Of a stretch of DNA of 64,000 nucleotides, positions 3,045-50,480 are shown one piece after another; position 1 is the first letter of the stretch; each line of letters begins with the position of its first letter. The notes beneath the pieces are model-generated. The model worked only from the letters and a program-made list of their open reading frames with translations, was not told where the DNA came from and did no database searches. A program made the translations under genes and the position numbers. Origin of the DNA: a virus; the IMG/VR virus record IMGVR_UViG_3300043395_003089, positions 25,168-89,167 of that record; one strand, given 5' to 3'.

Positions 3045-3377
3045 ATGTACGCGCTGAGATCCTACGAACAGACCGCGGTGTATGACCCCACGAATCCCGA
3101 TCAACGGATTCGTGAAGGCTACGCCAGCGACCCGGGGCGCTGGACTTCCTACTACTGGAACCCAGTGGACACGGGTGCGCAGTTGCGCGGCTCGGGTCTC
3201 GGGATCTCGTGGTCGTCGCTCGGCTCGACGGCGCAGATCGGCGTGATCGCGGTTGTCGGCGCGCTCGCCGGCTACTTCACGTGGAAGCAGTGGGGCGACA
3301 AGCTCCGTCCGACCATGAAAAAGATCCCGATCATCGGCTCGCAATTCGCCGGCTACAAGCGGCGGGGGCGGCGCTGA
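3045..3377 (+). CDS. single-pass membrane virion protein
   Basis: GGAGG SD; LRGSGLG motif, then TM (IGVIAVVGALAGYFTW), basic C-terminus. Confidence 0.7.
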   Translation: MYALRSYEQTAVYDPTNPDQRIREGYASDPGRWTSYYWNPVDTGAQLRGSGLGISWSSLGSTAQIGVIAVVGALAGYFTWKQWGDKLRPTMKKIPIIGSQFAGYKRRGRR

Positions 3378-3689: not shown

Positions 3690-3938
3690 ATGGCTCGCAC
3701 CGTCACCAGCGAGAACGCGCGGATCAACCGGCGCTGCGAAACAGCGCTGAAGGCCTTGAGCCCGCGCGAGTGCGACGCCCGAGCGGCGCTGCGCGCGAGC
3801 AACGCATGCGCCCACGTTCAATGGGGCACGCGGCTCGACAAGCACGCCAAGCGCGTGCTCAAGCGGCACGGGACATCATGCCCGGCGTTGCGCTTCGATG
3901 GATTCCACGGAACCCGCCGACGTCGGCGCCGTCGGTGA
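3690..3938 (+). CDS. small basic protein with poly-Arg tail
   Basis: Ends FDGFHGTRRRRRRR; 4 Cys. Confidence 0.65.
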   Translation: MARTVTSENARINRRCETALKALSPRECDARAALRASNACAHVQWGTRLDKHAKRVLKRHGTSCPALRFDGFHGTRRRRRRR

Positions 3939-6608: not shown

Positions 6609-9488
6609 CTAGCGTGGGCGCGCGTAGTCGGCCGTGAGCGTCGCGTGAACATCGCCGGGCCGCGCGTCGTCGTAGAAAGGCACCGGTCGCATGGCGCCCT
6701 TCACGGGCACGTGCTGGCCATCCATCGTCTCGACCCAAGCGGTTCCCTGTTGCTTCCACTTGCGGCGCCACGCCTCGGCCTCGGGCAACGTCAGCGCCCG
6801 CGGGGCGTCGACGATCTTGCGGACGCTAACGATCTTGCCGTCGCGGCGCGTGACGAGGTTGTAGGCGACGCGATAGCCGGTGGTGGAGCCCATGCCGGCA
6901 TTCTTGCGCGCTGCTCTGCCACGAAGGCCGAACAGATGGTGCTTGCTGAGTGTGTGGTGAGCAGCGGCGAAGCGTCGATCCGTCGAAGGCGATTGCTCGA
7001 AGTCTCGAAGGAGCTTGCGTGCATCATCGAGCGACGCCGAACGCGGCAACGTACGGAGCAGCTTCGAGACCTGCCATGCGCCCATTGCGGCGACGCGGCG
7101 AGCTTCTTCCTCGGTATCAGCCGTGCCGAACGGGATCAGCGGCTTGGTCCATTCGCCGTTGCGAATGTGCGGCACGCTCGCGATCTCGTCGCGTTCAAGC
7201 CCCCATGCGAGGAGTAGCTCGGGTTCCCACTGGCCTGGATTTTTTGGATCCTCGTGAACGTCCCACCAGACGTTGTAGACATTGTTGGAGCCGTCCTGTG
7301 GATAGATTCTCACGGCGCCCGAGTCGGCGTGGTCATGATTCATCGTCGTCAGTACCGAGATCGGGATCTCGTTCTGCTCGGCGAAGTCTTCGGCGATGTC
7401 TAGCGCCTCGGGTCCTTCGTTGTTGATCAGCCGACGAAACATGTTGCGCTGGTTCCTGAGATCCTCGTCGTCGAGCTCGAAGTACGTTACGTTCTCGTTC
7501 ATGCGCCCCGCAGCCATCGCCTCTTCGCGGGTCGCGTAGCGCGACGTCTTGATCTTGCGGGCGCCGAGCCCGAACAGCTCGGGCTGCTCCTTCAAGTGAT
7601 CGCGCGCGGAGTCGCGATAGATCGCGTCGACGACACGTTGACGATAGGCTCCCTCGGTCAGATTTTTCCCGCGGTACAGCTTCAACTCGTTGGCGACTTC
7701 CCAAGCCTCGGCGCCGACGATCTGTTCGAGCTCGCGAAGCGACTTGGCTCGACGAGGGTAGCCAGCGCCGATGTGTAGCGGCTTGTTGTCAAGCAATGTA
7801 TTCCACTCGACATCGTAGAGTTGTTTGCCGTCGACGCTCCTCCCCGGGAGACGGGTGATCGTCCAACTCACGCGTGTCGCCGGATCGTCTGGGGCTCCAA
7901 CCGGGCTCAAGTAAAGCGTACGCAGCTCGCCGATCTTGATTCCGTGCTCTAGCGCGTAGTCGGTCGCAGCAACCAACTCGGCCGGCGTCTGCGCGGTCTG
8001 AGTGAGCATCTTGAAAGTCTCGGTCGGAAACTCGTTGCGGTCCTCGCGCTCGCCACGAAGCCCGAACAGCTCCTCGGGCTCGCTGTTGTCGCGATCGAGC
8101 GTATGGAAGATATCGCGTGCTTGCGGCGTGAAGCCTTGCGCACGCAGCTTCTTCGTCTCTTTCGCGAGTGCCCATGCCTGCGCGGTCGCCGCGCGTCGGC
8201 AGTAGTCCATGTTGCCTTGGTAGTGCTCCTCGAACTTGACGTGATCGCTCTCGCGTTCTTCGCCGCCAACGCGCGCTCCATCGATACGAACATCGAAGAC
8301 GGCTTTGCACTCGCCACCGTGGCGCTCGTTCACGCGCTTGACGCGCCACGAGACACGGTCACGCTTGAAGATGTCCTCGTTGTTGTCGAGCCAGAACGTG
8401 CCGCGGTTGTCGGTGCCGCCTTTGGACAGCTCGCTCAGCTTGATCTCGTGTTGAAGCGCGAGATCCTCGGCGGGAACAAGCGCGCCCGGATCGGGGTCAG
8501 CGATCAGCTCCTTGATCTGCTTGCTCACGCGTTGACGTTCGGCCAACGGATCTTCGCCGAGGCCGCGTTTCTGGCGCGCGACGCAACGCTTGAACGCAGC
8601 GGGTGGCATGTTGACGCTACACGTCTCGCCGAGATCGTCGAGCCCCTTTAGCTTGTAGCCTTTCTCTCGAAGTTTTTGCACTTCCCGCAGGCGCTCCTGC
8701 CACTCGTTGTGCGACTCATGCGGATGCCAGGCGTCGACCGGCGTCGAGCGCGTTGGTGGCGGCACTGGCGGCGTATCCTGTCGGCCGAGGCCTGAGATCA
8801 TCGGCAGATCGATCTTGCCTTTCTTCCACCACGAGTAGGCCAGCGCGCCACCGACGGCGCCGAGGATGCCAATCGCGAACGGGAGCCACGTCTTGGGCTG
8901 CGCAGCGTCGAGCACGAGCTTTTGCAAGCCCTGCGCGGTCACGCGCGCGGCGTCGCCGCCGAAGTGCACGCCATCGCGAGCTCGACCGACCATCGCCGTG
9001 ATCGGCCGCGGATCGATGTAGCGGTTCTTGCCGAACACGCTCTGCATCATCTCGATCACGGGCAGCGCCTGTTGGGTCAGCTGATCATTGGCGTACGCGA
9101 ACGGCCCGATCGCCCACACGTCGGCGCCGAGGCCCTTGTAGAAGTCGCGGATCTTCGTCATCGCCTGCTTGTCGACGTCGAGATTGAGCCCGATGTCGTT
9201 GGTGCCAAGCACGACGAAAACCTTGGTCGGCATGAACGCTTGATCGCTGCCGAGCAAGGCCTGGAAGTTCTCGCGGCCGAAGAAATTGTGCGCGCTGCGG
9301 CCCACACGCGCGTTGACACGCACGGCCGAGGCTCCCTGTTCGAGCAGCATGCTCGCGAGCAAGTCGCCGGGCTGGCCGGACGCGCGATTCGAGCCCGTGT
9401 CAACGTCCCAGATCTCGGGCCCGGCGTCGGGGCCGTGATGGCTCAACGAATCGCCAAAAATCAAGATGCGCTGCCCGCGGACGTCCAT
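6609..9488 (-). CDS. SGNH/GDSL hydrolase domain + TM + three tandem repeated domains (putative polyprotein)
   Basis: FGDSL, G, LGTND, DGVH blocks of the SGNH family; TM at ~aa 200-220; internal repeats bounded by LFGL(R)G. Confidence 0.85.
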   Translation of the reverse strand: MDVRGQRILIFGDSLSHHGPDAGPEIWDVDTGSNRASGQPGDLLASMLLEQGASAVRVNARVGRSAHNFFGRENFQALLGSDQAFMPTKVFVVLGTNDIGLNLDVDKQAMTKIRDFYKGLGADVWAIGPFAYANDQLTQQALPVIEMMQSVFGKNRYIDPRPITAMVGRARDGVHFGGDAARVTAQGLQKLVLDAAQPKTWLPFAIGILGAVGGALAYSWWKKGKIDLPMISGLGRQDTPPVPPPTRSTPVDAWHPHESHNEWQERLREVQKLREKGYKLKGLDDLGETCSVNMPPAAFKRCVARQKRGLGEDPLAERQRVSKQIKELIADPDPGALVPAEDLALQHEIKLSELSKGGTDNRGTFWLDNNEDIFKRDRVSWRVKRVNERHGGECKAVFDVRIDGARVGGEERESDHVKFEEHYQGNMDYCRRAATAQAWALAKETKKLRAQGFTPQARDIFHTLDRDNSEPEELFGLRGEREDRNEFPTETFKMLTQTAQTPAELVAATDYALEHGIKIGELRTLYLSPVGAPDDPATRVSWTITRLPGRSVDGKQLYDVEWNTLLDNKPLHIGAGYPRRAKSLRELEQIVGAEAWEVANELKLYRGKNLTEGAYRQRVVDAIYRDSARDHLKEQPELFGLGARKIKTSRYATREEAMAAGRMNENVTYFELDDEDLRNQRNMFRRLINNEGPEALDIAEDFAEQNEIPISVLTTMNHDHADSGAVRIYPQDGSNNVYNVWWDVHEDPKNPGQWEPELLLAWGLERDEIASVPHIRNGEWTKPLIPFGTADTEEEARRVAAMGAWQVSKLLRTLPRSASLDDARKLLRDFEQSPSTDRRFAAAHHTLSKHHLFGLRGRAARKNAGMGSTTGYRVAYNLVTRRDGKIVSVRKIVDAPRALTLPEAEAWRRKWKQQGTAWVETMDGQHVPVKGAMRPVPFYDDARPGDVHATLTADYARPR

Positions 9489-9777
9489 GCCCTACAGGCT
9501 ATCACGAGCGGAAATAGGCGAGCCGGCCGGGGTTTCACCGGCTGAGGGAGGAACGCGCACCGCTACGCGCCACAATGGGGCCCTCAACAGCGATCGGGAC
9601 GCGACATCGCACGATCGAGGCCTAGCCAGCGAGGGAAGTCTCTGGGGTCGGCGTTCAGCTCAGAAGTGGCGGATACGATCGAGTGCGGGGTGCGCGAGAG
9701 TCAGGTCCATTACCTGATGCTTGTCGAGAGCATCGTGCGTGTGGGCACCACGCGGCGGATCGTGTCCGAGGCTGGTT

Positions 9778-10296: not shown

Positions 10297-10818
10297 CTAG
10301 CTCGCTGCTCTGCCAGTCCTAGCTACGTCGAAAGCAACCGTAATGCGCGGAGTCTCGTGCGGGTGTTTCTCGACGGAATGCCCGAGCCGCGATGGGAAGA
10401 GAACGAGTAGATCGGTTACTGGCTCGACACGCTCGACGCAAACCTCGTATCTCGACGGGCACCACTCGAAGATCGTTGCGGCACTTCGAGGGCCCCCTGG
10501 TTCCAGGTAAACGATTCCTGACCATGCATAGCGCGCGTTGTGCGTGTGCGCTCGATGATGTGAGCCCAGACGATTCACGACGGCCCAGCCAACGAGCGAG
10601 GCTGGATCAGCTTCGAGCTCAGGTATCGAGGCAAGCAAGGCGCAGAGCCGCGCGTGCAGCCACGTCGTCTTGAGCCACGTAGGCGACGAGCGCCAACCGC
10701 CTCGGTTGTGTGAGGCGTGAGATTCCGTCGACGCGGCGAGCTGCAAGATGTCGGCGCAGAGCGCTTGGCGTTCGAGCTCGCCGAGGCCGAGCGACAAGCG
10801 CTTGATCGGCGACGTCAC
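10297..10818 (-). CDS. 2OG-Fe(II) oxygenase (TIGR02466-like)
   Basis: SHNRGGWRS, HxH (HTH), WSGIVY, FPSRLGHSV, RITVAFD. Confidence 0.85.
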   Translation of the reverse strand: MTSPIKRLSLGLGELERQALCADILQLAASTESHASHNRGGWRSSPTWLKTTWLHARLCALLASIPELEADPASLVGWAVVNRLGSHHRAHTHNARYAWSGIVYLEPGGPRSAATIFEWCPSRYEVCVERVEPVTDLLVLFPSRLGHSVEKHPHETPRITVAFDVARTGRAAS

Positions 10819-11216
10819 TCGGTCGGGTTGTACGTGTCGCACTTGCCGGGGCCCGCGTTGGTGTGCGGAACCCAGAACAGCACGTTCGGTGCCGCAGCGC
10901 CTTCATCGCTGTTCGACAGCACGACATGCACCGTGTTGGTGTCGGTGTCGAGGTAGGGCTCGCCGACGATCGTGATGCTCGCCCATTCGCTCATCGGTGG
11001 TAGCGGGATCACCATGCAACGCGACGCGGGCGTCGTGCCATCGGATGGTGGCGTCGATTGCGCGACACCGAGCGGCGGATCGACGGGGTCCGATGGACCA
11101 CCAGACGTGTTGTAGGCCTGATTGGCGACCTGCAACAGCGTATCCACGTTGGTGTCACCGCCAGGGAGGGAGAGTCGAGCTCGACGCCAATGGAGATTGC
11201 CAGCTTGTGCGCTCAT
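10815..11216 (-). CDS. hypothetical, possibly structural
   Basis: GTGCTAGCGT motif 6 nt upstream; beta-rich. Confidence 0.6.
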   Translation of the reverse strand: MSAQAGNLHWRRARLSLPGGDTNVDTLLQVANQAYNTSGGPSDPVDPPLGVAQSTPPSDGTTPASRCMVIPLPPMSEWASITIVGEPYLDTDTNTVHVVLSNSDEGAAAPNVLFWVPHTNAGPGKCDTYNPTE

Positions 11217-12870: not shown

Positions 12871-13449
12871 TCATGGATTTTGCACCGACATCGCCTTTTT
12901 CCAGGTCTCGATCGCGCGAGCGTAAACCGCGATCTGCTCGCGCATCTCGATTCGCCCAGTCCAGTGACCGGCGCTGCGTTGCACCATTCGCTCGTAGGCA
13001 TCGAGCGCCGGCAATGCGGCGAACGCGGCTAAGAAGTCTTCGAGCGCCTTGATGTATGGCGTTACATGCGGCGCTTTCTCGACGAGCATCGCGACAGCTT
13101 CCGCGTCTCGCCCGAGACGGATCATGTCTGCGGCGATGCCACGCCACTCGTCGTCGGCGACGAGCGTCGGGTGCGTGACTTTGTAGACTTCCTGAAGCGC
13201 GATGATCAACTCGGGCAACGAATTGGTTTCGAGGATAATCGTGCGAGCTGTTTCGACGGTGCGCGATGGGATACTTAGCTGCGCGATCTTGACGCCGAAC
13301 TTGATGTGAAAGCCATCGCGCGCAATCGCGCGAGCCTCGGTGTGCTGCGGGTCCTCGCAGCGTTCACACGGCAAGTGCGCGCGAAATTCCTCGGCGGTAC
13401 GAAACGCGTGCATTGACTCGATTACCCTTCGTGTTCGTCCGTCGCTCAC
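12871..13449 (-). CDS. hypothetical protein
   Basis: GTGA overlap with recombinase stop. Confidence 0.6.
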   Translation of the reverse strand: MSDGRTRRVIESMHAFRTAEEFRAHLPCERCEDPQHTEARAIARDGFHIKFGVKIAQLSIPSRTVETARTIILETNSLPELIIALQEVYKVTHPTLVADDEWRGIAADMIRLGRDAEAVAMLVEKAPHVTPYIKALEDFLAAFAALPALDAYERMVQRSAGHWTGRIEMREQIAVYARAIETWKKAMSVQNP

Positions 13450-14399
13450 TTGATCACCAGCTCGCGCAGCCACTGCGGTGTCGAGTTGCGAACTTTCTCG
13501 GCGATCGCCTTCATGTCGATGTAGCCGCCCATCGCGCCGAGGCCGGGCAACGTGTGACCGGTCATCGCGGCGATCTCGTGCGGCGCGAGCCCGGCGTCTG
13601 CGCGCCACGTCACGAACGTGTGACGAAACTGGTGGGGATGGATGTGGCCGATCTTCGCCTCAGCCGTGCGCTTGTTGAGCACCCGGTTGACGTGATCGGG
13701 GTAGAACGGCGTGCGCTCGATCGCGTATGCCGCACCGAACGGCCCGATCTGGCGTTGCACACCGCAGAACACGGGGCCCGAGCCGCGACTTCGCCCCGAG
13801 AGCCACGCGAGCCACGGGCGCAGCGCCGCGATCGCGGTGTCCGAGAGCGGCACGGCGACGTCATCGAGCCCGGTGCCTTTCATCCGCACCCACGCGTGCG
13901 GGTAGTTGCCCTTGCTCAAGGCGATATCGAGATGCGTACGCTCGACCGTCATCGAGCAGATCGACATCTTCCGCATGCCGGTTTCGAGCATGACGATCAC
14001 CATCGCGTGATCGCGCAGCGCGAGCGGATCGCTGACGGCCGCGCGTGCGAGCGACTGCACAAGCTTGGTGACGGTCTCTTGCTGTAGCGCGTGCTTGGGG
14101 CGAGCCTTGCGGCCCTTGGCTTTCTGCACGTACGCGAAGTCGAGCTCGGGCTTGTTCTGGTAGTGAGCGCGCCACTTCGAGGCGTACGCGACGCTCGCCA
14201 TCAACCGATTCGCGCTCTGCGGGCGCAGCTCGCGCTCGTCGAGCAAGTGATCGTAGAACGCTTGAGCGCGCTCGCGCGTCCAGCCGCTCGGCGCCTCGCC
14301 TGCGAACGCGATCCACTGATCGATGTCGCGCAGGTAGCGCTTCCTCGACGATGGCGCGAGGTTGCGGCTTTTCTTGATGACGTCGTGTAGTTCGCTCAT
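13446..14399 (-). CDS. tyrosine recombinase/integrase (XerC/D-like)
   Basis: N-terminal SAM-like region; TGMR, K, HPHQFRH, TGH, C-terminal Y catalytic set. Confidence 0.92.
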   Translation of the reverse strand: MSELHDVIKKSRNLAPSSRKRYLRDIDQWIAFAGEAPSGWTRERAQAFYDHLLDERELRPQSANRLMASVAYASKWRAHYQNKPELDFAYVQKAKGRKARPKHALQQETVTKLVQSLARAAVSDPLALRDHAMVIVMLETGMRKMSICSMTVERTHLDIALSKGNYPHAWVRMKGTGLDDVAVPLSDTAIAALRPWLAWLSGRSRGSGPVFCGVQRQIGPFGAAYAIERTPFYPDHVNRVLNKRTAEAKIGHIHPHQFRHTFVTWRADAGLAPHEIAAMTGHTLPGLGAMGGYIDMKAIAEKVRNSTPQWLRELVIK

Positions 14400-38974: not shown

Positions 38975-39108
38975 GACGACAGCCTAGCGCGCTGGTCTGC
39001 CACCGGGGCGCAGCACCCGAGTCATCTGGATGCCCACCCCGTAGATGTGCATCTGCCAGACGACGCCTGTACCCATCATCGTCGTCGGCATCGCGGTGTT
39101 GTTTCGTC

Positions 39109-39843
39109 TCACGACTCGCCTTGCTTGCGCCATGGCGCGAACGTCTCGCGCTCACGCAGCTTGAGCGGATCGTACTTCGGCGGCAGGATCGTCTTCGTCG
39201 CCACGTAGTAGCCACCGAACGCGACCACGAACCACGGCAGGTAGCCGAGGAACTTGAAGAACGAGCCGAGTAGATCGGGGATCTTCAGGACCGTTTGACC
39301 GACTTGCTTGACGACGTTTCCGACAGCCTTCGCGAAGCTGATCAGCGCCTCAGCCGCGCCCCCGAGAGCCTGTAGCGCACCGAGCAACGCTCCGGGCCGC
39401 GAGCACTCGACGAACGACGTCGCTAGCTTCGCGACGCGTGCCGACTTGAGCACGTTGACGATGAAGCGCTTGAGCCCCTGCGCCTCGATGATGTCAATGC
39501 CCTTACGCTCGGCTTCGAGTTGCGCCTCGATGAAGCGTCTGGGGTCGTAGAGCTCGTCGTTGATGTCCTCGTGAGCCTTGAACAGAATCTCGTGGTGTGA
39601 TGGTAGCTGAAGCTGCTTGGACGCTGCGCTGATCGCCTGTTGCGAGGCGACACGCAGATCTGTCACGAGCAAGTTGATCTGCTTGAGCTGCTCGACGGTG
39701 TAGAACCCCGTCGTCTTCCAATTGTCGATCACGTCATCGATGTTGGCGTCCCACGGACGCATCGAGACCGTGATGAATTCGCGGCACGTGTCTTCGAGCG
39801 AGAAACCCGAGATCGTCTTCACCAGATCATCGTAGAGGCTCAT
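39109..39843 (-). CDS. helical protein with C-terminal TM
   Basis: Start MSLYDD coupled to upstream gene; TM near end. Confidence 0.7.
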   Translation of the reverse strand: MSLYDDLVKTISGFSLEDTCREFITVSMRPWDANIDDVIDNWKTTGFYTVEQLKQINLLVTDLRVASQQAISAASKQLQLPSHHEILFKAHEDINDELYDPRRFIEAQLEAERKGIDIIEAQGLKRFIVNVLKSARVAKLATSFVECSRPGALLGALQALGGAAEALISFAKAVGNVVKQVGQTVLKIPDLLGSFFKFLGYLPWFVVAFGGYYVATKTILPPKYDPLKLRERETFAPWRKQGES

Positions 39844-41834: not shown

Positions 41835-42539
41835 TTAGACCACGTTGCGGCGGATCAGGCCGTACAGGTACGACTTGACATCCGCGAACGTCAGCGCCGT
41901 CGAGTTGTCCGACGCCGGCTGGTTGATCACCAGCGGGGCCTCGGGCGAGAACGACAGCTTGTACGCGAGGTTCTCGCGCAGCCAGATCGGCAGGACGAGC
42001 GCGTTGCGATCGCGCGGCGACGGGACGCCGTTCTGCGCGAGCTCGAACGAGCTGTTGGTCGAGAACACGTTGTAACCGTGTCCCTGCGGGTAGTCCTGCA
42101 TCACGCCATACGTGTACTTCTTGTCGTTGTACGTGAATTCGAGGTACGTCACGCGATCGACCGAGAACAGCGTCTGGAGCTGCGGCGGGTTCGAGAGCGC
42201 GCCCGAACCGTCGGCGAGCACGACCGCGCCGGCCGTGGTCGCGCGCATCACGCGGACCATCATGATGCCGATGCCGTAGATGTACATCTCCCACGACATC
42301 GGGAGACCGGTGTCACCCGAGCGGGGGACGTTGGTGTCGACGCGGGTCGCCGCGCGCGTACCACCGGGGATCGGCTGCGAGCGGCCCGAGACGAACGCCT
42401 CGACGGGCGACGTCTGGCCGTTCACGAGCTGAACGGTCGAATAGAGCTTGTCATCGATCCAGTCCTCGATCGAAACGGTCTGACCGTTCGGGAGGGTGAT
42501 CGTCGTGGTTCCTGGTGCAACGCCAACAGTGCCGGCCAT
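41835..42539 (-). CDS. putative major capsid protein (single jelly-roll-like, 234 aa)
   Basis: Strong SD AGGAGA; beta-rich, no TM; YSTV...F...DTN...GLP...IYGI...LPIWL...LYG pattern; fold assignment is inference. Confidence 0.6.
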   Translation of the reverse strand: MAGTVGVAPGTTTITLPNGQTVSIEDWIDDKLYSTVQLVNGQTSPVEAFVSGRSQPIPGGTRAATRVDTNVPRSGDTGLPMSWEMYIYGIGIMMVRVMRATTAGAVVLADGSGALSNPPQLQTLFSVDRVTYLEFTYNDKKYTYGVMQDYPQGHGYNVFSTNSSFELAQNGVPSPRDRNALVLPIWLRENLAYKLSFSPEAPLVINQPASDNSTALTFADVKSYLYGLIRRNVV

Positions 42540-42717: not shown

Positions 42718-43359
42718 TTAGCCGCGACCACCACCGAGCAGCGTTGCGCCGTACGCTGCGCTGAGGCCGTGCACCGCCGGGCCACCGATGCCGCGCAGGT
42801 GCGAGGCCTGCGGGCTCATCGGGCCGAGCAACGAGACGGGCGGCATGCTCGCGCCGGGCGAAGCGAGCTGGTTGCCGGCGACGCCCGGGATCGTGCCCGC
42901 GGGCGCCGTGCGCTCGGCGATCATCGGCACGCCGAGGCCGTTCAGGTCACGAGCCATCGGGATGCCGAGGCCGTTGAGCGCGTTGATCTGCGGGATGCCG
43001 AGACCGGCCGTGCCGCCCGCGGCGGGAACGACGGCCGCAGCTGGCGCCGTGATCGTGCCGAACAGGAGCCGTTCGAGCAGCGCGATACCCGAGGCGAACG
43101 CCGCACCGAGCGCTGCGCCGAGCGCCGCGTGACGCGTCGACTTCATCGCGTACATCACGCCCGCGGTTGCGAGACCGGCACCGAGGCCGATGCCCTCGGC
43201 GTACTTGACGCCCGAGCCGCTACCGCTGTGACGAGCGAGCATCGTCGAGGCGCCGGAGACGCCGCCACCAATGAGCGTGCCCCACAGCGGCGACAGGCCG
43301 GGATTCTGCCCGTAGGCGTTGAGGCCGAGCAGATCGACTTTTCCGAGGGAGCGCGACAT
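42718..43359 (-). CDS. Gly/Ala-rich membrane protein with tandem LNGLG motifs
   Basis: 2-3 hydrophobic helices; AGLGIP-LNGLGIP-LNGLGVP. Confidence 0.75.
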   Translation of the reverse strand: MSRSLGKVDLLGLNAYGQNPGLSPLWGTLIGGGVSGASTMLARHSGSGSGVKYAEGIGLGAGLATAGVMYAMKSTRHAALGAALGAAFASGIALLERLLFGTITAPAAAVVPAAGGTAGLGIPQINALNGLGIPMARDLNGLGVPMIAERTAPAGTIPGVAGNQLASPGASMPPVSLLGPMSPQASHLRGIGGPAVHGLSAAYGATLLGGGRG

Positions 43360-43395: not shown

Positions 43396-43575
43396 CTACT
43401 TGCGGCGAGGCGAGCATTCGCCCGGTTGGAAAATCCAGCCCGAGCGCGTGCGCTTGCCCTTGCCGACGAAACAGAGCTTCGCGGACTTCTTCGTCCGCGG
43501 GTTGTAGACGCACTTGCACTGACCCTCGGTAGGAGCACCGAGGCCAGGACCCGAGAGCGTCATGATCTTTGCCAT
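43396..43575 (-). CDS. 59-aa basic Cys-containing protein (not in ORF track)
   Basis: MAKIMTLSGPGLGAPTEGQCKCVYNPRTKKSAKLCFVGKGKRTRSGWIFQPGECSPRRK. Confidence 0.65.
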   Translation of the reverse strand: MAKIMTLSGPGLGAPTEGQCKCVYNPRTKKSAKLCFVGKGKRTRSGWIFQPGECSPRRK

Positions 43576-43596: not shown

Positions 43597-44052
43597 CTAG
43601 CCGGCGCGGTAGTAGGTGAAGTATCGGCGTGACGCGAGCGCGCGACCGGCCTGCGCGATCGGGCCGCGCACCTGCAACGCGTTCGAGTGCTGCGTCAGAT
43701 GGCGAAGCATCTGCATCTGCGCCTGCATCTGCGGCGCGACCTGCGAGGCTGTCACGGTCTCGGGGCCGGGCGAGCTCGACGCTGCGATGATCGCCGCCTT
43801 CTCGACGGCCTTCTCGACCTTGCGCATCGCGAAGCGAGCCTTGACGTTGGCCCACCATGTAGCGATCGGACCCGGAGCGCCCAAGCCCGCGAGCTGCGTC
43901 GCGAGCGGTCCGCCCGTGGTGAAGGCCTGCGCGACTGCCTGGACGTCGGCCTGTGGGTTGTACCCCACGAACGGCCGGATGATGCTGGAACGCATGACGC
44001 CGTCGGGGCGCATGACGTGTGCTTCGCCGCCGTGCCTGAAAATCGTCGCCAT
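43597..44052 (-). CDS. putative virion protein
   Basis: QLAGLGAP motif; TAGTTT 6 nt upstream. Confidence 0.7.
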   Translation of the reverse strand: MATIFRHGGEAHVMRPDGVMRSSIIRPFVGYNPQADVQAVAQAFTTGGPLATQLAGLGAPGPIATWWANVKARFAMRKVEKAVEKAAIIAASSSPGPETVTASQVAPQMQAQMQMLRHLTQHSNALQVRGPIAQAGRALASRRYFTYYRAG

Positions 44053-46203: not shown

Positions 46204-46548
46204 CTACTTGCGTGAGAGCCAGAGCCCGGCGATCGCGGCGACACCCGCGAGCACAGCGCCACCGACGGTCAATCGTGTTGCCCAGACATCGCTGATTCCG
46301 AGCCCGCGAAACCCGAACCGGCGATTCGTACAGCACCACTCGTGGCCGCTGTCGCAGAAGCAGTCACGCACGCGAGCCGCACCGAGCCCAGCTTCAGGCG
46401 GCGGCGCGTAGTAGGGCCCGACAGGCTGCGGCGTCATTTGATCCATCCCGGGAGGAAAGGCCACGTGACGGTTGTATTTCGGATTCTGCGCCCACCCTTG
46501 GTTGTATTGCCAGGCAGGCACCATGCCGAGAGACTTGGCGAGAATCAT
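46204..46548 (-). CDS. membrane-anchored virion protein
   Basis: AGLGA and FRGLG motifs, CFCD...CC, C-terminal TM. Confidence 0.7.
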
Positions 46549-47204: not shown

Positions 47205-47894
47205 TCATGCTGGCAAATCGACGGCCTTGAAGTCGACGCCCTTCACGTAGACGCCCTCTTTATCGAACGACCTGTTCCCGGGCAACGTAGTGTCCAGCGG
47301 CACAAATCTGCCGTTGATCATCCCGCCACAGAACACGTGACTCCAATCAGGATCCTTGCGCTGACGGACAACGCGTAGACGCGGCTCGATGCCGTTGAGC
47401 GCGAGCAGCGTCGCACCAAGGATTGCATGATCATCGCAGTCACCGCCGGAAAACTCCCAGGTGCGTTTGGCGCTCTGGTAGAGATCGATGCCCTCGACCT
47501 TGCCGTCGGGATGGCGGATCGGGCCGATGTCGCCCGTGTAGCGCACGCGATTCTTGATCGCGTGATAGATCGCCTCGGCTTCGCAGCGCTGATCGCGCTC
47601 GGGGCACTTGTTCGTGATCTGGAGCGCGAGCTTTCTCATCTCTGCGTTCTGGACTGACTTATGGACAAGGTCTTGGATCGTCGCGATGCGCTGCTCGATC
47701 GGCATCTGGTTCGACGCGCGCAGGATCGTCTTCATGCGGCCATCGGAGTAGGTGCCGACGACCGGCGCTTGCTTGAAGCGACCGAGGCCCATGAGCACGC
47801 GGTTCTGTCGCGTCGCCCAGATCCCGAGCGCCAAGATGCCTAGACCGGCGAGCCCAGAGGCGATGATAACTTTCTTGCGCTGCGTGAGCTTCAC
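47205..47894 (-). CDS. membrane-anchored transglutaminase-like cysteine protease
   Basis: N-terminal TM; GDCDD (Cys), WSHVF (His), PLDTT (Asp) triad. Confidence 0.85.
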   Translation of the reverse strand: MKLTQRKKVIIASGLAGLGILALGIWATRQNRVLMGLGRFKQAPVVGTYSDGRMKTILRASNQMPIEQRIATIQDLVHKSVQNAEMRKLALQITNKCPERDQRCEAEAIYHAIKNRVRYTGDIGPIRHPDGKVEGIDLYQSAKRTWEFSGGDCDDHAILGATLLALNGIEPRLRVVRQRKDPDWSHVFCGGMINGRFVPLDTTLPGNRSFDKEGVYVKGVDFKAVDLPA

Positions 47895-47928
47895 GCTCCA
47901 ACGCTACCACAGATGATTTGTTTCTAGC

Positions 47929-47938
47929 GTGATAGGCT
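47929..47938 (+). promoter_or_regulatory. class II motif exemplar GTGATAGGCT (extended -10, TGnTAnnnT)
   Basis: Same motif 6-10 nt before starts at 3951, 9488, 11774, 25437, 26705, 36476, 37410, 40166, 47894, 49254, 51444, 51971, 52188. Confidence 0.8.
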
Positions 47939-47945
47939 GACTGCC

Positions 47946-49226
47946 ATGCTGCTCGCGCGCGATGGCTTCGGAGGGCTCGGTGCTTTCGGGGCCAACTACG
48001 TCCCCAAGCCGTCGCATACACCGTATACGCCGCAACCAAGCGCGGGGGTGCCGTACACACCGCAGCCGTCGACTACCACGAAGCGGTACACGTACGCGGA
48101 GCTGCAAACGAAATACGCCGAGTTTTTGCAGGCGCAAACCGAGCAGCAACGCATCGAAGAATTCGGGCTCGCGTCGATGATCCCGACTTGCCCACCAACG
48201 GCGATGTCGAGCGCGACGGCTTGCTACAACGGCGCCGCGCCGAACCTCCTGACGCCCGGTACGTTCATCGCCTATGGTGTGCCGTTCAACGTCAGCGAAT
48301 TCAAGCCTGGCGACGGACGGAGCTTCAGCAAGACGGTCGTTGCGAATCCGATCCAGCGTGAAGTGATCGAGCGCGCGATTCGTACGCGCTCGGCGCAGGT
48401 CGTCAGCAAGTACATGAGCCAGCTGGCGATCTCCGGCTACCCGGATCCGGCGAATTTGTCGATCACGCAGCTCGCGAAGCTGGCCCCGGATTTCGCGACC
48501 AACATCCGCGGGCTCAAATACAACCCGATCCTCCCGAACGACGACGAGCTCAACAACACAGGCGGCTATCGCAAGTGGATCGCGCGCGGTGGGTTTCCTC
48601 TTAGCTCGGGCGTCGCGTACGGCACGATCTCGCTCGACGAGGCGTACTCGCCGGTCGTCTGCCAATCGATCTTGTGCCGTTGCCCGGTCGCGTCGACGCG
48701 GCCGATCGCATGTGTGCGCGCGTATATCACCAAGGACGGCGCGATCTCGCAACACCCGAGCTCCGATTTGGCGTCGTTCTGGGTGTTCCTCAAGATCGAG
48801 AACGACAACCAGATCACCGTCTCGCTCGATTACGTCGAGAAAACGAAGTTGCAGAAGTTCGGCAACGCGATGGCGAGTCTGCTCAACGCAATCGCCAAGA
48901 CGCTCTGTGTCGCAGCGCCCGCAGCGAAAGACCAAATGAACAAGTTGGCGTTGCCCAAATGCGTCGACAAGGCTAACAAGCCTTGCAAGCAAGGCGCTAC
49001 GGGATGCACGTGCGTGACGCCACCAGACAGCACGGCGATGGCCGTCGGTACGACCAACCTCGTGATGCAGAAGTGGTGCGAGGGTTGGGCTGCTGCGAAC
49101 GCTGCGCCGATCGATTACCCGATCGATAACATCATGCCACCCGTTCAGCCCAAGCCGTTTCCATGGGCTTGGCTCGTCGGTGGGCTCGCGGTATTCGGTG
49201 GCCTCGTGTACGCTTCGCGTAGATAG
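47946..49226 (+). CDS. Cys-rich virion protein with C-terminal TM
   Basis: GTGATAGGCT upstream; FGGLGAFG at N-terminus; TM + RR end. Confidence 0.75.
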   Translation: MLLARDGFGGLGAFGANYVPKPSHTPYTPQPSAGVPYTPQPSTTTKRYTYAELQTKYAEFLQAQTEQQRIEEFGLASMIPTCPPTAMSSATACYNGAAPNLLTPGTFIAYGVPFNVSEFKPGDGRSFSKTVVANPIQREVIERAIRTRSAQVVSKYMSQLAISGYPDPANLSITQLAKLAPDFATNIRGLKYNPILPNDDELNNTGGYRKWIARGGFPLSSGVAYGTISLDEAYSPVVCQSILCRCPVASTRPIACVRAYITKDGAISQHPSSDLASFWVFLKIENDNQITVSLDYVEKTKLQKFGNAMASLLNAIAKTLCVAAPAAKDQMNKLALPKCVDKANKPCKQGATGCTCVTPPDSTAMAVGTTNLVMQKWCEGWAAANAAPIDYPIDNIMPPVQPKPFPWAWLVGGLAVFGGLVYASRR

Positions 49227-49253: not shown

Positions 49254-49745
49254 ATGCTGCTCTCCACGCCAACAGCCCTTCCCGTCGAGCTCATGGGGCC
49301 GATGCTCCAAGGGCCCGCCGAGGTAAAGTCGCTCCAACAGGCGCTCAAGAATTTGAGCGTCGCGACGCAGCGACCGGACATCGATCCGGGGCCCATCGAT
49401 GGCAACGTCAACCCGCAAACGGTGCAGGCCGTCATCGCCGGGCAAACGCTGCTCTCGGCCGAGCTGCCCTCGTGGGCGTTCGTCGCGTTGCAGGCGGCGC
49501 TCGCCGCGGGCGCGATGACGAGCAAGGCCAAGGAAGCTGTTGCCGCAGCGGCTGTTCCGCTCACCGTCGCCGCGAACACGGCCGCGGTGAAGTTCAAGAC
49601 GGCCAATCCCACGATGATGCCGAGCAGCGTCGTCGGTTTCTTCGCACCAGGCTGGTACAAGACGCCACTCGGGATCGCGTTGATCCTCGGCGCGGCGTTC
49701 GTCGGCTGGAAGCTGTTCTTCACTCCCCCCACCAAGGCGGCATGA
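49254..49745 (+). CDS. membrane-anchored protein with peptidoglycan-binding-like domain
   Basis: VKSLQQAL...DPGPIDG...T; WYKTPLG anchor. Confidence 0.7.
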   Translation: MLLSTPTALPVELMGPMLQGPAEVKSLQQALKNLSVATQRPDIDPGPIDGNVNPQTVQAVIAGQTLLSAELPSWAFVALQAALAAGAMTSKAKEAVAAAAVPLTVAANTAAVKFKTANPTMMPSSVVGFFAPGWYKTPLGIALILGAAFVGWKLFFTPPTKAA

Positions 49746-50054: not shown

Positions 50055-50480
50055 ATGTTGCAGCTACGCGGCAGTGGGCTCGGTGAAGATTGGTCGACGA
50101 TGACGCCCGACGAGGCACCGACCGGCGAGGATCGCCCTGCGGCTGCGGTCTACTGCGGAAAGAAGTACGGCACGACGAGCCCATACTTCCAACCGTGCGT
50201 TGACTTCTACGCCGGCCCGCACATCGGCGAGTACGTTCCATCGAGTGCGTCACCTGGTACCAAGATCACCAAGTTGCCGCCGATCTTCGGTGGTGGTTCT
50301 CCGTCGACGTTCTTGAACCCGAGCTCGACGGCGACCAACAAGATCGGCTCGGGTGGCGTGCTTCCGCTGCCGTCGATCCCCGTGGTCTTTCCGGCCGGTG
50401 TGCCGTGGTACAAGACGCCGCTCGGCATCGGCGCGCTCGTACTCGGCGGGATCTTCGCGTATCGTCGACTCAAGCGCTAA
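50055..50480 (+). CDS. small membrane-anchored virion protein
   Basis: MLQLRGSGLG; WYKTPLG anchor; AGGAG SD. Confidence 0.72.
   Translation: MLQLRGSGLGEDWSTMTPDEAPTGEDRPAAAVYCGKKYGTTSPYFQPCVDFYAGPHIGEYVPSSASPGTKITKLPPIFGGGSPSTFLNPSSTATNKIGSGGVLPLPSIPVVFPAGVPWYKTPLGIGALVLGGIFAYRRLKR

Follow-up and report, generated by a model that had tools for sequence, protein, structure and literature searches.

A membrane-anchored esterase protein of a large bacterial virus carries a string of modules joined by a Leu-x-Gly linker motif, a putative processing site

The polyvalent proteins of phages and conjugative elements were described by Iyer, Burroughs, Anand, de Souza and Aravind in 2017, who proposed that they are processed and delivered together with the DNA (PMC5512222). 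In adenoviruses, precursor proteins are cut by adenain (AVP) at (M/I/L)XGX|G and (M/I/L)XGG|X, and pVI is cut at IVGL|G (PMC4246237). Here we analysed P0001, a protein of 959 amino acids (aa) from an uncultivated large bacterial virus, encoded on the minus strand at positions 6609-9488 of a 64-kb stretch of DNA. This stretch, the window, is the 3' part of an 89,167-bp IMG/VR virus record (63% G+C; estimated 86% complete). The open reading frame (ORF) encodes an SGNH esterase, a transmembrane (TM) helix, a small module C, three repeats (R1, R2, R3) and a module Y, and the linkers between these parts carry a short motif, (E)-Leu-x-Gly. We give roughly even chances to the reading that the linkers are processing sites for a membrane-anchored cysteine protease of transglutaminase fold from the same virus, the candidate being P0022, and that P0001 is a membrane-anchored modular polyprotein.

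Trimming or release of proteins at short sites is known from several other systems. LapG (Peptidase_C93), a transglutaminase-like cysteine protease, makes one cut by the anchor or retention module and frees the modular adhesin LapA; this enzyme acts in the periplasm, depends on calcium and has a di-alanine cutting site. The internal proteins of T4 lose their capsid-targeting sequences to gp21, the inner-body proteins of phiKZ are cut by gp175, and the polyproteins pp220 and pp62 of African swine fever virus (ASFV) are cut at Gly-Gly-X. Polyubiquitin consists of head-to-tail copies with a Leu/Gly tail, the last of which has zero or few extra residues, and is cut by papain-like cysteine proteases. 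To our knowledge, cleavage of polyproteins by a conserved code is commonplace in RNA viruses, in adenoviruses and in ASFV and nearly unknown in bacterial viruses; processing has been predicted for polyvalent phage proteins, and we know of no description of a shared cleavage code among them.

Behind the anchor, P0001 contains three homologous domains, R1 (aa 318-480; 8049-8537), R2 (aa 490-642; 7563-8021) and R3 (aa 679-857; 6918-7454), all on the minus strand and ending in LFGLRG, LFGLG and LFGLRG, respectively. Self-BLAST of P0001 gave no off-diagonal match, and single-sequence methods therefore miss the repeats. When BLAST was run against homologues, separate parts of P0001 matched one common region of a single subject, and profiles built with Jackhmmer from a database excluding P0001 (Z set to 1e6) matched 318-480, 490-642 and 679-857 at independent E-values (iE) of 1e-17 to 1e-32. 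A preliminary description of the window, made from the sequence alone, had proposed three homologous domains of ~160-210 aa, and all three were recovered in this way; the signature strings that it quoted fell into common alignment columns. Statistical support for the repeats, for which it had suggested a self-comparison, came from the profiles of other proteins and not from P0001 matched against itself.

The R alignment, with 28 copies at first, later comprised 44 copies in 27 proteins. The consensus has two helices at its N-terminus (DPDP..M.VAED..LE...KLSEL), then a beta sheet, the segment A.A.AWA.AK..K and a tail, (D/N)NSEP.EL[FY]G. In a tree of the copies R1, R2 and R3 fell into three separate clades, each together with copies from other proteins, and on this sequence comparison they are therefore old paralogous subtypes that have been shuffled; an origin by recent tandem duplication was ruled out by the same clades. 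No stand-alone R protein turned up in a search that covered lengths of 89-286 aa. The Y module of P0001 (GYRVAY..., aa 868-953; 6630-6887, minus strand), by contrast, has copies elsewhere that form a protein on their own or follow other TM anchors. Between LKGLD and RGLG lies the C mini-module (aa 283-312; 8553-8642, minus strand), a basic segment with two cysteines and 7 homologous copies.

An AlphaFold (AF2) model of P0001, based on 55 aligned sequences, reached a mean predicted local distance difference test score (pLDDT) of 70. R1, with three helices, four strands and two helices (pLDDT 82-94), R2 (58-80) and Y (79-93) were folded units in this model; R3 was poorly modelled, and its borders therefore rest on the profile alone. 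An atlas search with R2 gave no usable match, and fold searches with the whole 959-aa model (PDB, BFVD and VIA wide) returned SGNH matches only, none for R or Y. Five stretches holding copies of the motif had pLDDT values below 50: aa 225-255 with ISGLG just past the anchor (aa 231-235; 8784-8798), 281-288 with LKGLD, 467-488 with LFGLRG (aa 474-479; 8052-8069), 636-673 with LFGLG at its start (aa 638-642; 7563-7577), and 832-868 with LFGLRG (aa 852-857; 6918-6935) and AGMG (aa 865), all encoded on the minus strand. The positions of ISGLG, RGLG (aa 308) and the three LFGL copies were those of the preliminary description, to which AGMG was added. Its suggestion that the motifs stand at domain boundaries agreed with the model, which sets them in low-confidence linkers between folded parts; since they lie in predicted disordered linkers, they are not buried in folds. 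The ELFG tail lay outside the confident R fold. Six of the ten [LM]xG tripeptides of P0001 were in low-confidence residues, which make up 27% of the chain, and LFGL occurred 3 times compared to 0.018 expected from composition.

Relatives of P0001 carried the same element. An exhaustive search with an upper limit of E 0.001 yielded 227 cluster representatives. In 155 relatives, short family members (~200-260 aa) comprised the esterase and, at its C-terminal end, a TM helix with a few basic residues, after which the chain stopped, while long members appended shuffled modules behind the helix, with an L-x-G placed 3-12 residues past the basic patch. Six modules recurred in the family (R, Y, V, W, H and C) and were defined by small profiles; their order and number varied among the relatives, and in dozens of these the L-x-G element joined unrelated modules. 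Nearly all R copies (41 of 44) ended in [EDH]-L-[FYL]-G. Counted by position, the linkers had E at -3, L at -2, a variable residue at -1 and G at 0, followed by L, A, P or D. The family-wide consensus is thus (E)-L-x-G, which replaces the LFGL(R)G first taken as the motif.

Among the linkers that separate annotated modules or follow the TM helix (86 linkers, 3-45 aa long), [LM]xG was present in 70 (81%), and [LM]xG or LG in 82. The density of [LM]xG was 4.49 per 100 aa in linkers and 0.28 in module interiors, a 16-fold difference, whereas about 3-fold would be expected from composition alone, the linkers being 1.9 times richer in Gly and 1.5 times richer in Leu than the interiors. The control patterns P.G, [AV].G and [LM].[AS] gave linker/module ratios of 0.9-1.7. 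The enrichment was not confined to the R tail: among linkers that were not preceded by R, 46 of 61 carried [LM]xG. The flanks of Y, V, W and H, modules with profiles that are free of the motif, carried it upstream in 16 of 34 and downstream in 15 of 30 cases, compared to a background of 8.3% and 2.3% in interiors (p ~3e-9, although p-values for the linker motif overstate independence, as the sequences are related). The H module was followed by LDGLRG or LAGP if another module came next, and had a motif-free end where it formed the C-terminus. Genome-wide, the longer pattern [LMIF]xG[LIVM]G was enriched, with 20 occurrences compared to 6.7 expected (0 of 300 shuffles). A role of the motif as a DNA-level recombination site found no support, as the three LFGL sites have only 12-18 nt in common, made up of ordinary codons.

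The candidate processing protease P0022 (229 aa; 47205-47894, minus strand) has an N-terminal TM helix, followed by LMGLG-R and a transglutaminase-like core with the putative catalytic residues Cys153, His186 and Asp201. It matched Transglut_core at 24.1 bits (cut-off 23), and all three homologues aligned to it matched this family as well (best 1.6e-6). Homologues with 46-58% identity were present in four of five related genomes; the catalytic triad was invariant, and so was the L-G-R behind the anchor. One P0022 homologue matched Peptidase_C93 (LapG/BTLCP) weakly (E 0.019). In every related genome, no more than about 7 kb separate the P0022 gene from the gene that is most conserved in the group. 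The gene at 47205 had earlier been taken for a protease. A conserved Transglut_core protein with invariant Cys-His-Asp and its own TM helix was indeed found there; an adenain-type enzyme was excluded, because the catalytic order is Cys, His, Asp and not the His, Glu/Asp, Cys of clan CE.

In the reading that we prefer, the core of P0001 is the esterase, which is anchored by one TM helix and its basic tail and represents a conserved gene of the group. In the lineage of P0001 an accessory string has been added behind this anchor, consisting of the small Cys peptide, the three R domains and Y, and the modules are linked by short disordered stretches bearing (E)-Leu-x-Gly. P0022 would cut these linkers, putatively after the Gly, and the modules would thereby leave the membrane as proteins of their own, be it in the particle or in the infected cell. 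We rank processing first because the motif marks almost all junctions, is missing where no module comes next and recurs behind the anchor of the protease itself. A Leu-anchored Gly motif that is both conserved and disordered and marks the junctions in this way is most simply explained as a site recognised by one partner, and its presence at each junction suggests that the modules separate, as it would otherwise not be needed.

Several observations weigh against processing by P0022. The assignment of P0022 as a protease is borderline at the sequence level: the Pfam match is barely above the cut-off, and searches of the PDB with its sequence and profile found no solved relative. None of the five related genomes contained R or Y cargo when searched for it; those with a P0022 homologue thus lack both, and the protease is therefore not specific to P0001. 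The loose [LM]xG tripeptide occurred at chance level, both in P0001 (10 compared to 8.2 expected) and in the proteome (214 compared to 206), and the evidence from the motif is therefore positional. The ELFG tail is kept where R is the last domain (P0003 ends in HLFGR, P0025 in ELFG), and P0019 likewise keeps the motif at its C-terminus, which also fits a role in docking or C-terminal recognition. Finally, the genes next to P0001 are accessory (a 2-oxoglutarate (2OG) oxygenase, an integrase and methylases); the gene sits outside the structural block.

These C-termini lead to the alternative that survives best, although we regard it as rather unlikely: P0001 might be an uncleaved polyvalent membrane protein whose L-x-G and ELFG elements serve in docking, for instance to the inside of the capsid, to a scaffold or to a chaperone, like the cargo-loading peptides of encapsulins. 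Being conserved yet disordered is typical of short docking motifs, the EncFtn-like module of one homologue is a classic encapsulated cargo, and some polyvalent proteins are packaged or transferred unprocessed (PMC5512222). However, with a single TM anchor a docking motif at every junction would be redundant, and docking explains neither why H modules are followed by the motif only if something comes after them nor why the same element stands behind the anchor of the protease.

Another cutter, be it a host protease, an unrecognised viral protease or self-cleavage, with P0022 having a different job, seems improbable. Most of the virus genome has no family match, and another protease could therefore be hidden there, which together with the borderline assignment of P0022 speaks for this explanation; on the other side, P0022 is encoded by a core gene, its triad is intact, its gene carries the promoter motif described below, and no further peptidase family was found among the ~50 proteins scanned. 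That the motif has no function at all, ELFG being the structural end of R and Leu-x-Gly an ordinary flexible Gly-rich linker, is very improbable, since the Gly and Leu content of the linkers and the chance-level proteome count, which would suit it, are outweighed by an enrichment far beyond composition with flat control patterns, by the many motif-bearing linkers without a preceding R and by the position of the ELFG tail outside the confident fold.

If P0001 is processed by P0022, its family offers a simple code, (E)-L-x-G in disordered linkers, together with a candidate enzyme and natural permutations of the modules, as well as R and Y as two conserved domains that may serve as cargo. Confirmation would show how a large group of viruses loads and releases accessory proteins and would provide a handle on the biology of the particle.

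The part of P0001 in front of the anchor, proposed earlier as an SGNH esterase, proved to be one. The SGNH/GDSL domain (aa 1-195; 8904-9488, minus strand; pLDDT 94-98) has the catalytic residues Ser14, Asn97, Asp172 and His175. The Pfam family GDSL was weak in P0001 itself, yet it was matched by 20 of 20 relatives scanned (best 1.8e-10). In 20 sequences all catalytic blocks were invariant: block I (G12-D13-S14, with the Ser as nucleophile), block II (G41) and block III (G95-T96-N97-D98), which form the oxyanion hole, and block V (D172, G173 and H175 in D172-x-x-H175). The model showed the three-layer alpha/beta/alpha fold of SGNH hydrolases and aligned to GDSL hydrolase 2o14 with Z 17.3 and a root-mean-square deviation of 3.1 over 178 residues, to the peptidoglycan O-acetylesterase 4k3u with Z 16.1 and to a deacetylating tail fibre of a phage with Z 15.0; the best Foldseek match had an E-value of 5.9e-6. 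The esterase looks active. The TM segment expected after this domain was present as a hydrophobic stretch, predicted as a helix by AF2, at aa 201-223 (8820-8888, minus strand), followed by the basic patch KKGK.

Seven nucleotides before the ATG of P0001, in the manner of leaderless genes, lies the extended -10-like promoter motif GTGATAGCCT (9496-9505, minus strand). Its consensus, GTGRTAGSST, occurred 16 times between positions 3935 and 52181 of the window compared to 0.43 expected, in all cases 6-10 nt before a start codon; the sites include 47901-47910 (minus strand) and 47929-47938 (plus strand). Among the genes preceded by it are those of P0022 (starting at 47894) and of the divergent 426-aa protein next to it, the endolysin operon and a gene adjoining the spike genes. 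GTGRTAGSST probably acts as an extended -10 promoter from which a set of lysis, spike, membrane and protease genes is transcribed into leaderless mRNAs; this would place P0001 in one expression class with lysis and particle genes. This promoter motif, common to lysis and spike genes, is the one observation that points to packaging of P0001 into the virion.

A 2OG-Fe(II) oxygenase gene (E 5e-11; 10297-10842, minus strand) lies just upstream of P0001 in a common leftward gene string, and a tyrosine recombinase gene is found at 13446-14399 (minus strand). A PHROGs search assigned P0001 to no family, and tblastn against 50,697 phage records gave nothing that matched P0001 or its 721-aa neighbour. 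Among the homologues, P0007 carries an EncFtn-like ferritin module (E 2.8e-11), and a glycine loop resembling that of kinases, seen by eye in L007 and P0018, had no Pfam support. P0101, an unrelated TM protein with a Y module, starts with MPSIMTLQGPQIG and resembles a 59-aa window protein (43396-43575, minus strand) that starts with MAKIMTLSGPGLG; the two may share an N-terminal leader.

Related genomes were found by an alignment-based scan of viral contigs, after a scan with a single protein had given nothing. Two of the five genomes are complete and have terminal repeats; in the five, the esterase gene either is short or bears modules of other kinds. The gene with the strongest conservation in the group encodes a 234-aa protein (41835-42539, minus strand) that is 62-76% identical in each of the five relatives and has 460 relatives in the database, none of them named. 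Its model was all-beta and of low confidence (pLDDT 58). Structure searches with it listed mostly viral jelly-roll capsid proteins, with a best VIA match of Z 7.9, which is at noise level; no Foldseek match was below E 0.001, and the Pfam family P2_N was not found. The protein is likely to be a jelly-roll capsid protein. The two other profiles tried, Terminase_6N and the HK97 family Phage_capsid, had no match in the five genomes G000 and G001-G004.

Three small proteins beside the capsid candidate (42718-43359, 43396-43575 and 43597-44052, minus strand) contain LNGLG (twice), LSGPGLG and LAGLG, and in their orthologues from two related genomes [LMF]xGLG is kept amid variable sequence. A 49-aa ORF (38984-39133, minus strand) repeats residues 61-100 of the capsid candidate with 41% identity and the core IYG[IV]GI, and is apparently a partial duplicate of it. 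Two relatives of the capsid candidate with 85-86% identity (L020 and L021) are on contigs of metagenome-assembled genomes binned to Actinomycetes and to Polyangiales. Many proteins have a single TM helix and a basic tail at the C-terminus, the layout of the short esterase forms, among them those at 47946-49226, 49254-49745, 50055-50480 and 3045-3377 (plus strand) and at 46204-46548 (minus strand).

A wider reading, which we hold to be rather unlikely, is that these viruses form an undescribed, widespread group of 85-220-kb bacterial viruses that have a jelly-roll shell and many tail-anchored membrane proteins but neither a recognisable HK97 capsid nor a recognisable terminase, and in which a membrane-anchored cysteine protease of transglutaminase fold, cutting at Leu-x-Gly, matures the particle. 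The P0001 esterase would then be kept in the viral membrane, and its cargo would be freed in the particle and delivered to the next host. If this is true, the group would be a bacterial counterpart of the precursor processing of adenoviruses and ASFV, combined with the cargo of polyvalent proteins.

The closest described concept for P0001 is that of the polyvalent protein: as there, unrelated shuffled modules of variable copy number and order stand in one viral polypeptide (PMC5512222). Unlike polyvalent proteins, P0001 has its string behind a TM-anchored esterase, and the putative processing would take place in trans at a linker motif and not by an embedded metallopeptidase domain (PMC5512222). 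Hallmark domains of polyvalent proteins (ParB-like, MuF, methylase, MPTase and others) were not detected in P0001; two homologues, P0014 and P0016, had weak matches to ParBc_2 or ParB_N at their C-termini (E 0.083 and 0.14). Polyubiquitin is similar in that the R copies, too, end in a Leu/Gly tail; however, the R domain has no beta-grasp fold in the AF2 model, and a link to conjugation is without support. P0001 would resemble the proteins of T4, phiKZ and ASFV, in which a virion protease recognises a short consensus and trims cargo or core proteins of a DNA virus, but those systems use other motifs and protease folds, and they have neither a TM-anchored esterase as carrier nor shuffling of modules. 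Closer in mechanism is LapG, with which P0022 shares the transglutaminase fold and the putative release of an anchored modular protein, the candidate site being L-x-G in place of di-alanine. As in the adenovirus sites, an aliphatic residue is combined with Gly, and ISGLG and LFGLG of P0001 fit (M/I/L)XGX|G, whereas the two LFGLRG sites and most linkers of the family (LAGP, LYGA, LFGD) do not. Adenain itself belongs to clan CE with His-Glu-Cys; P0022 is of the transglutaminase/papain type with Cys-His-Asp and is membrane-anchored. By analogy, the closest mechanistic counterparts of the proposed processing would be the maturation of adenovirus precursors (PMC4246237) and the LapG-type release of an anchored protein.

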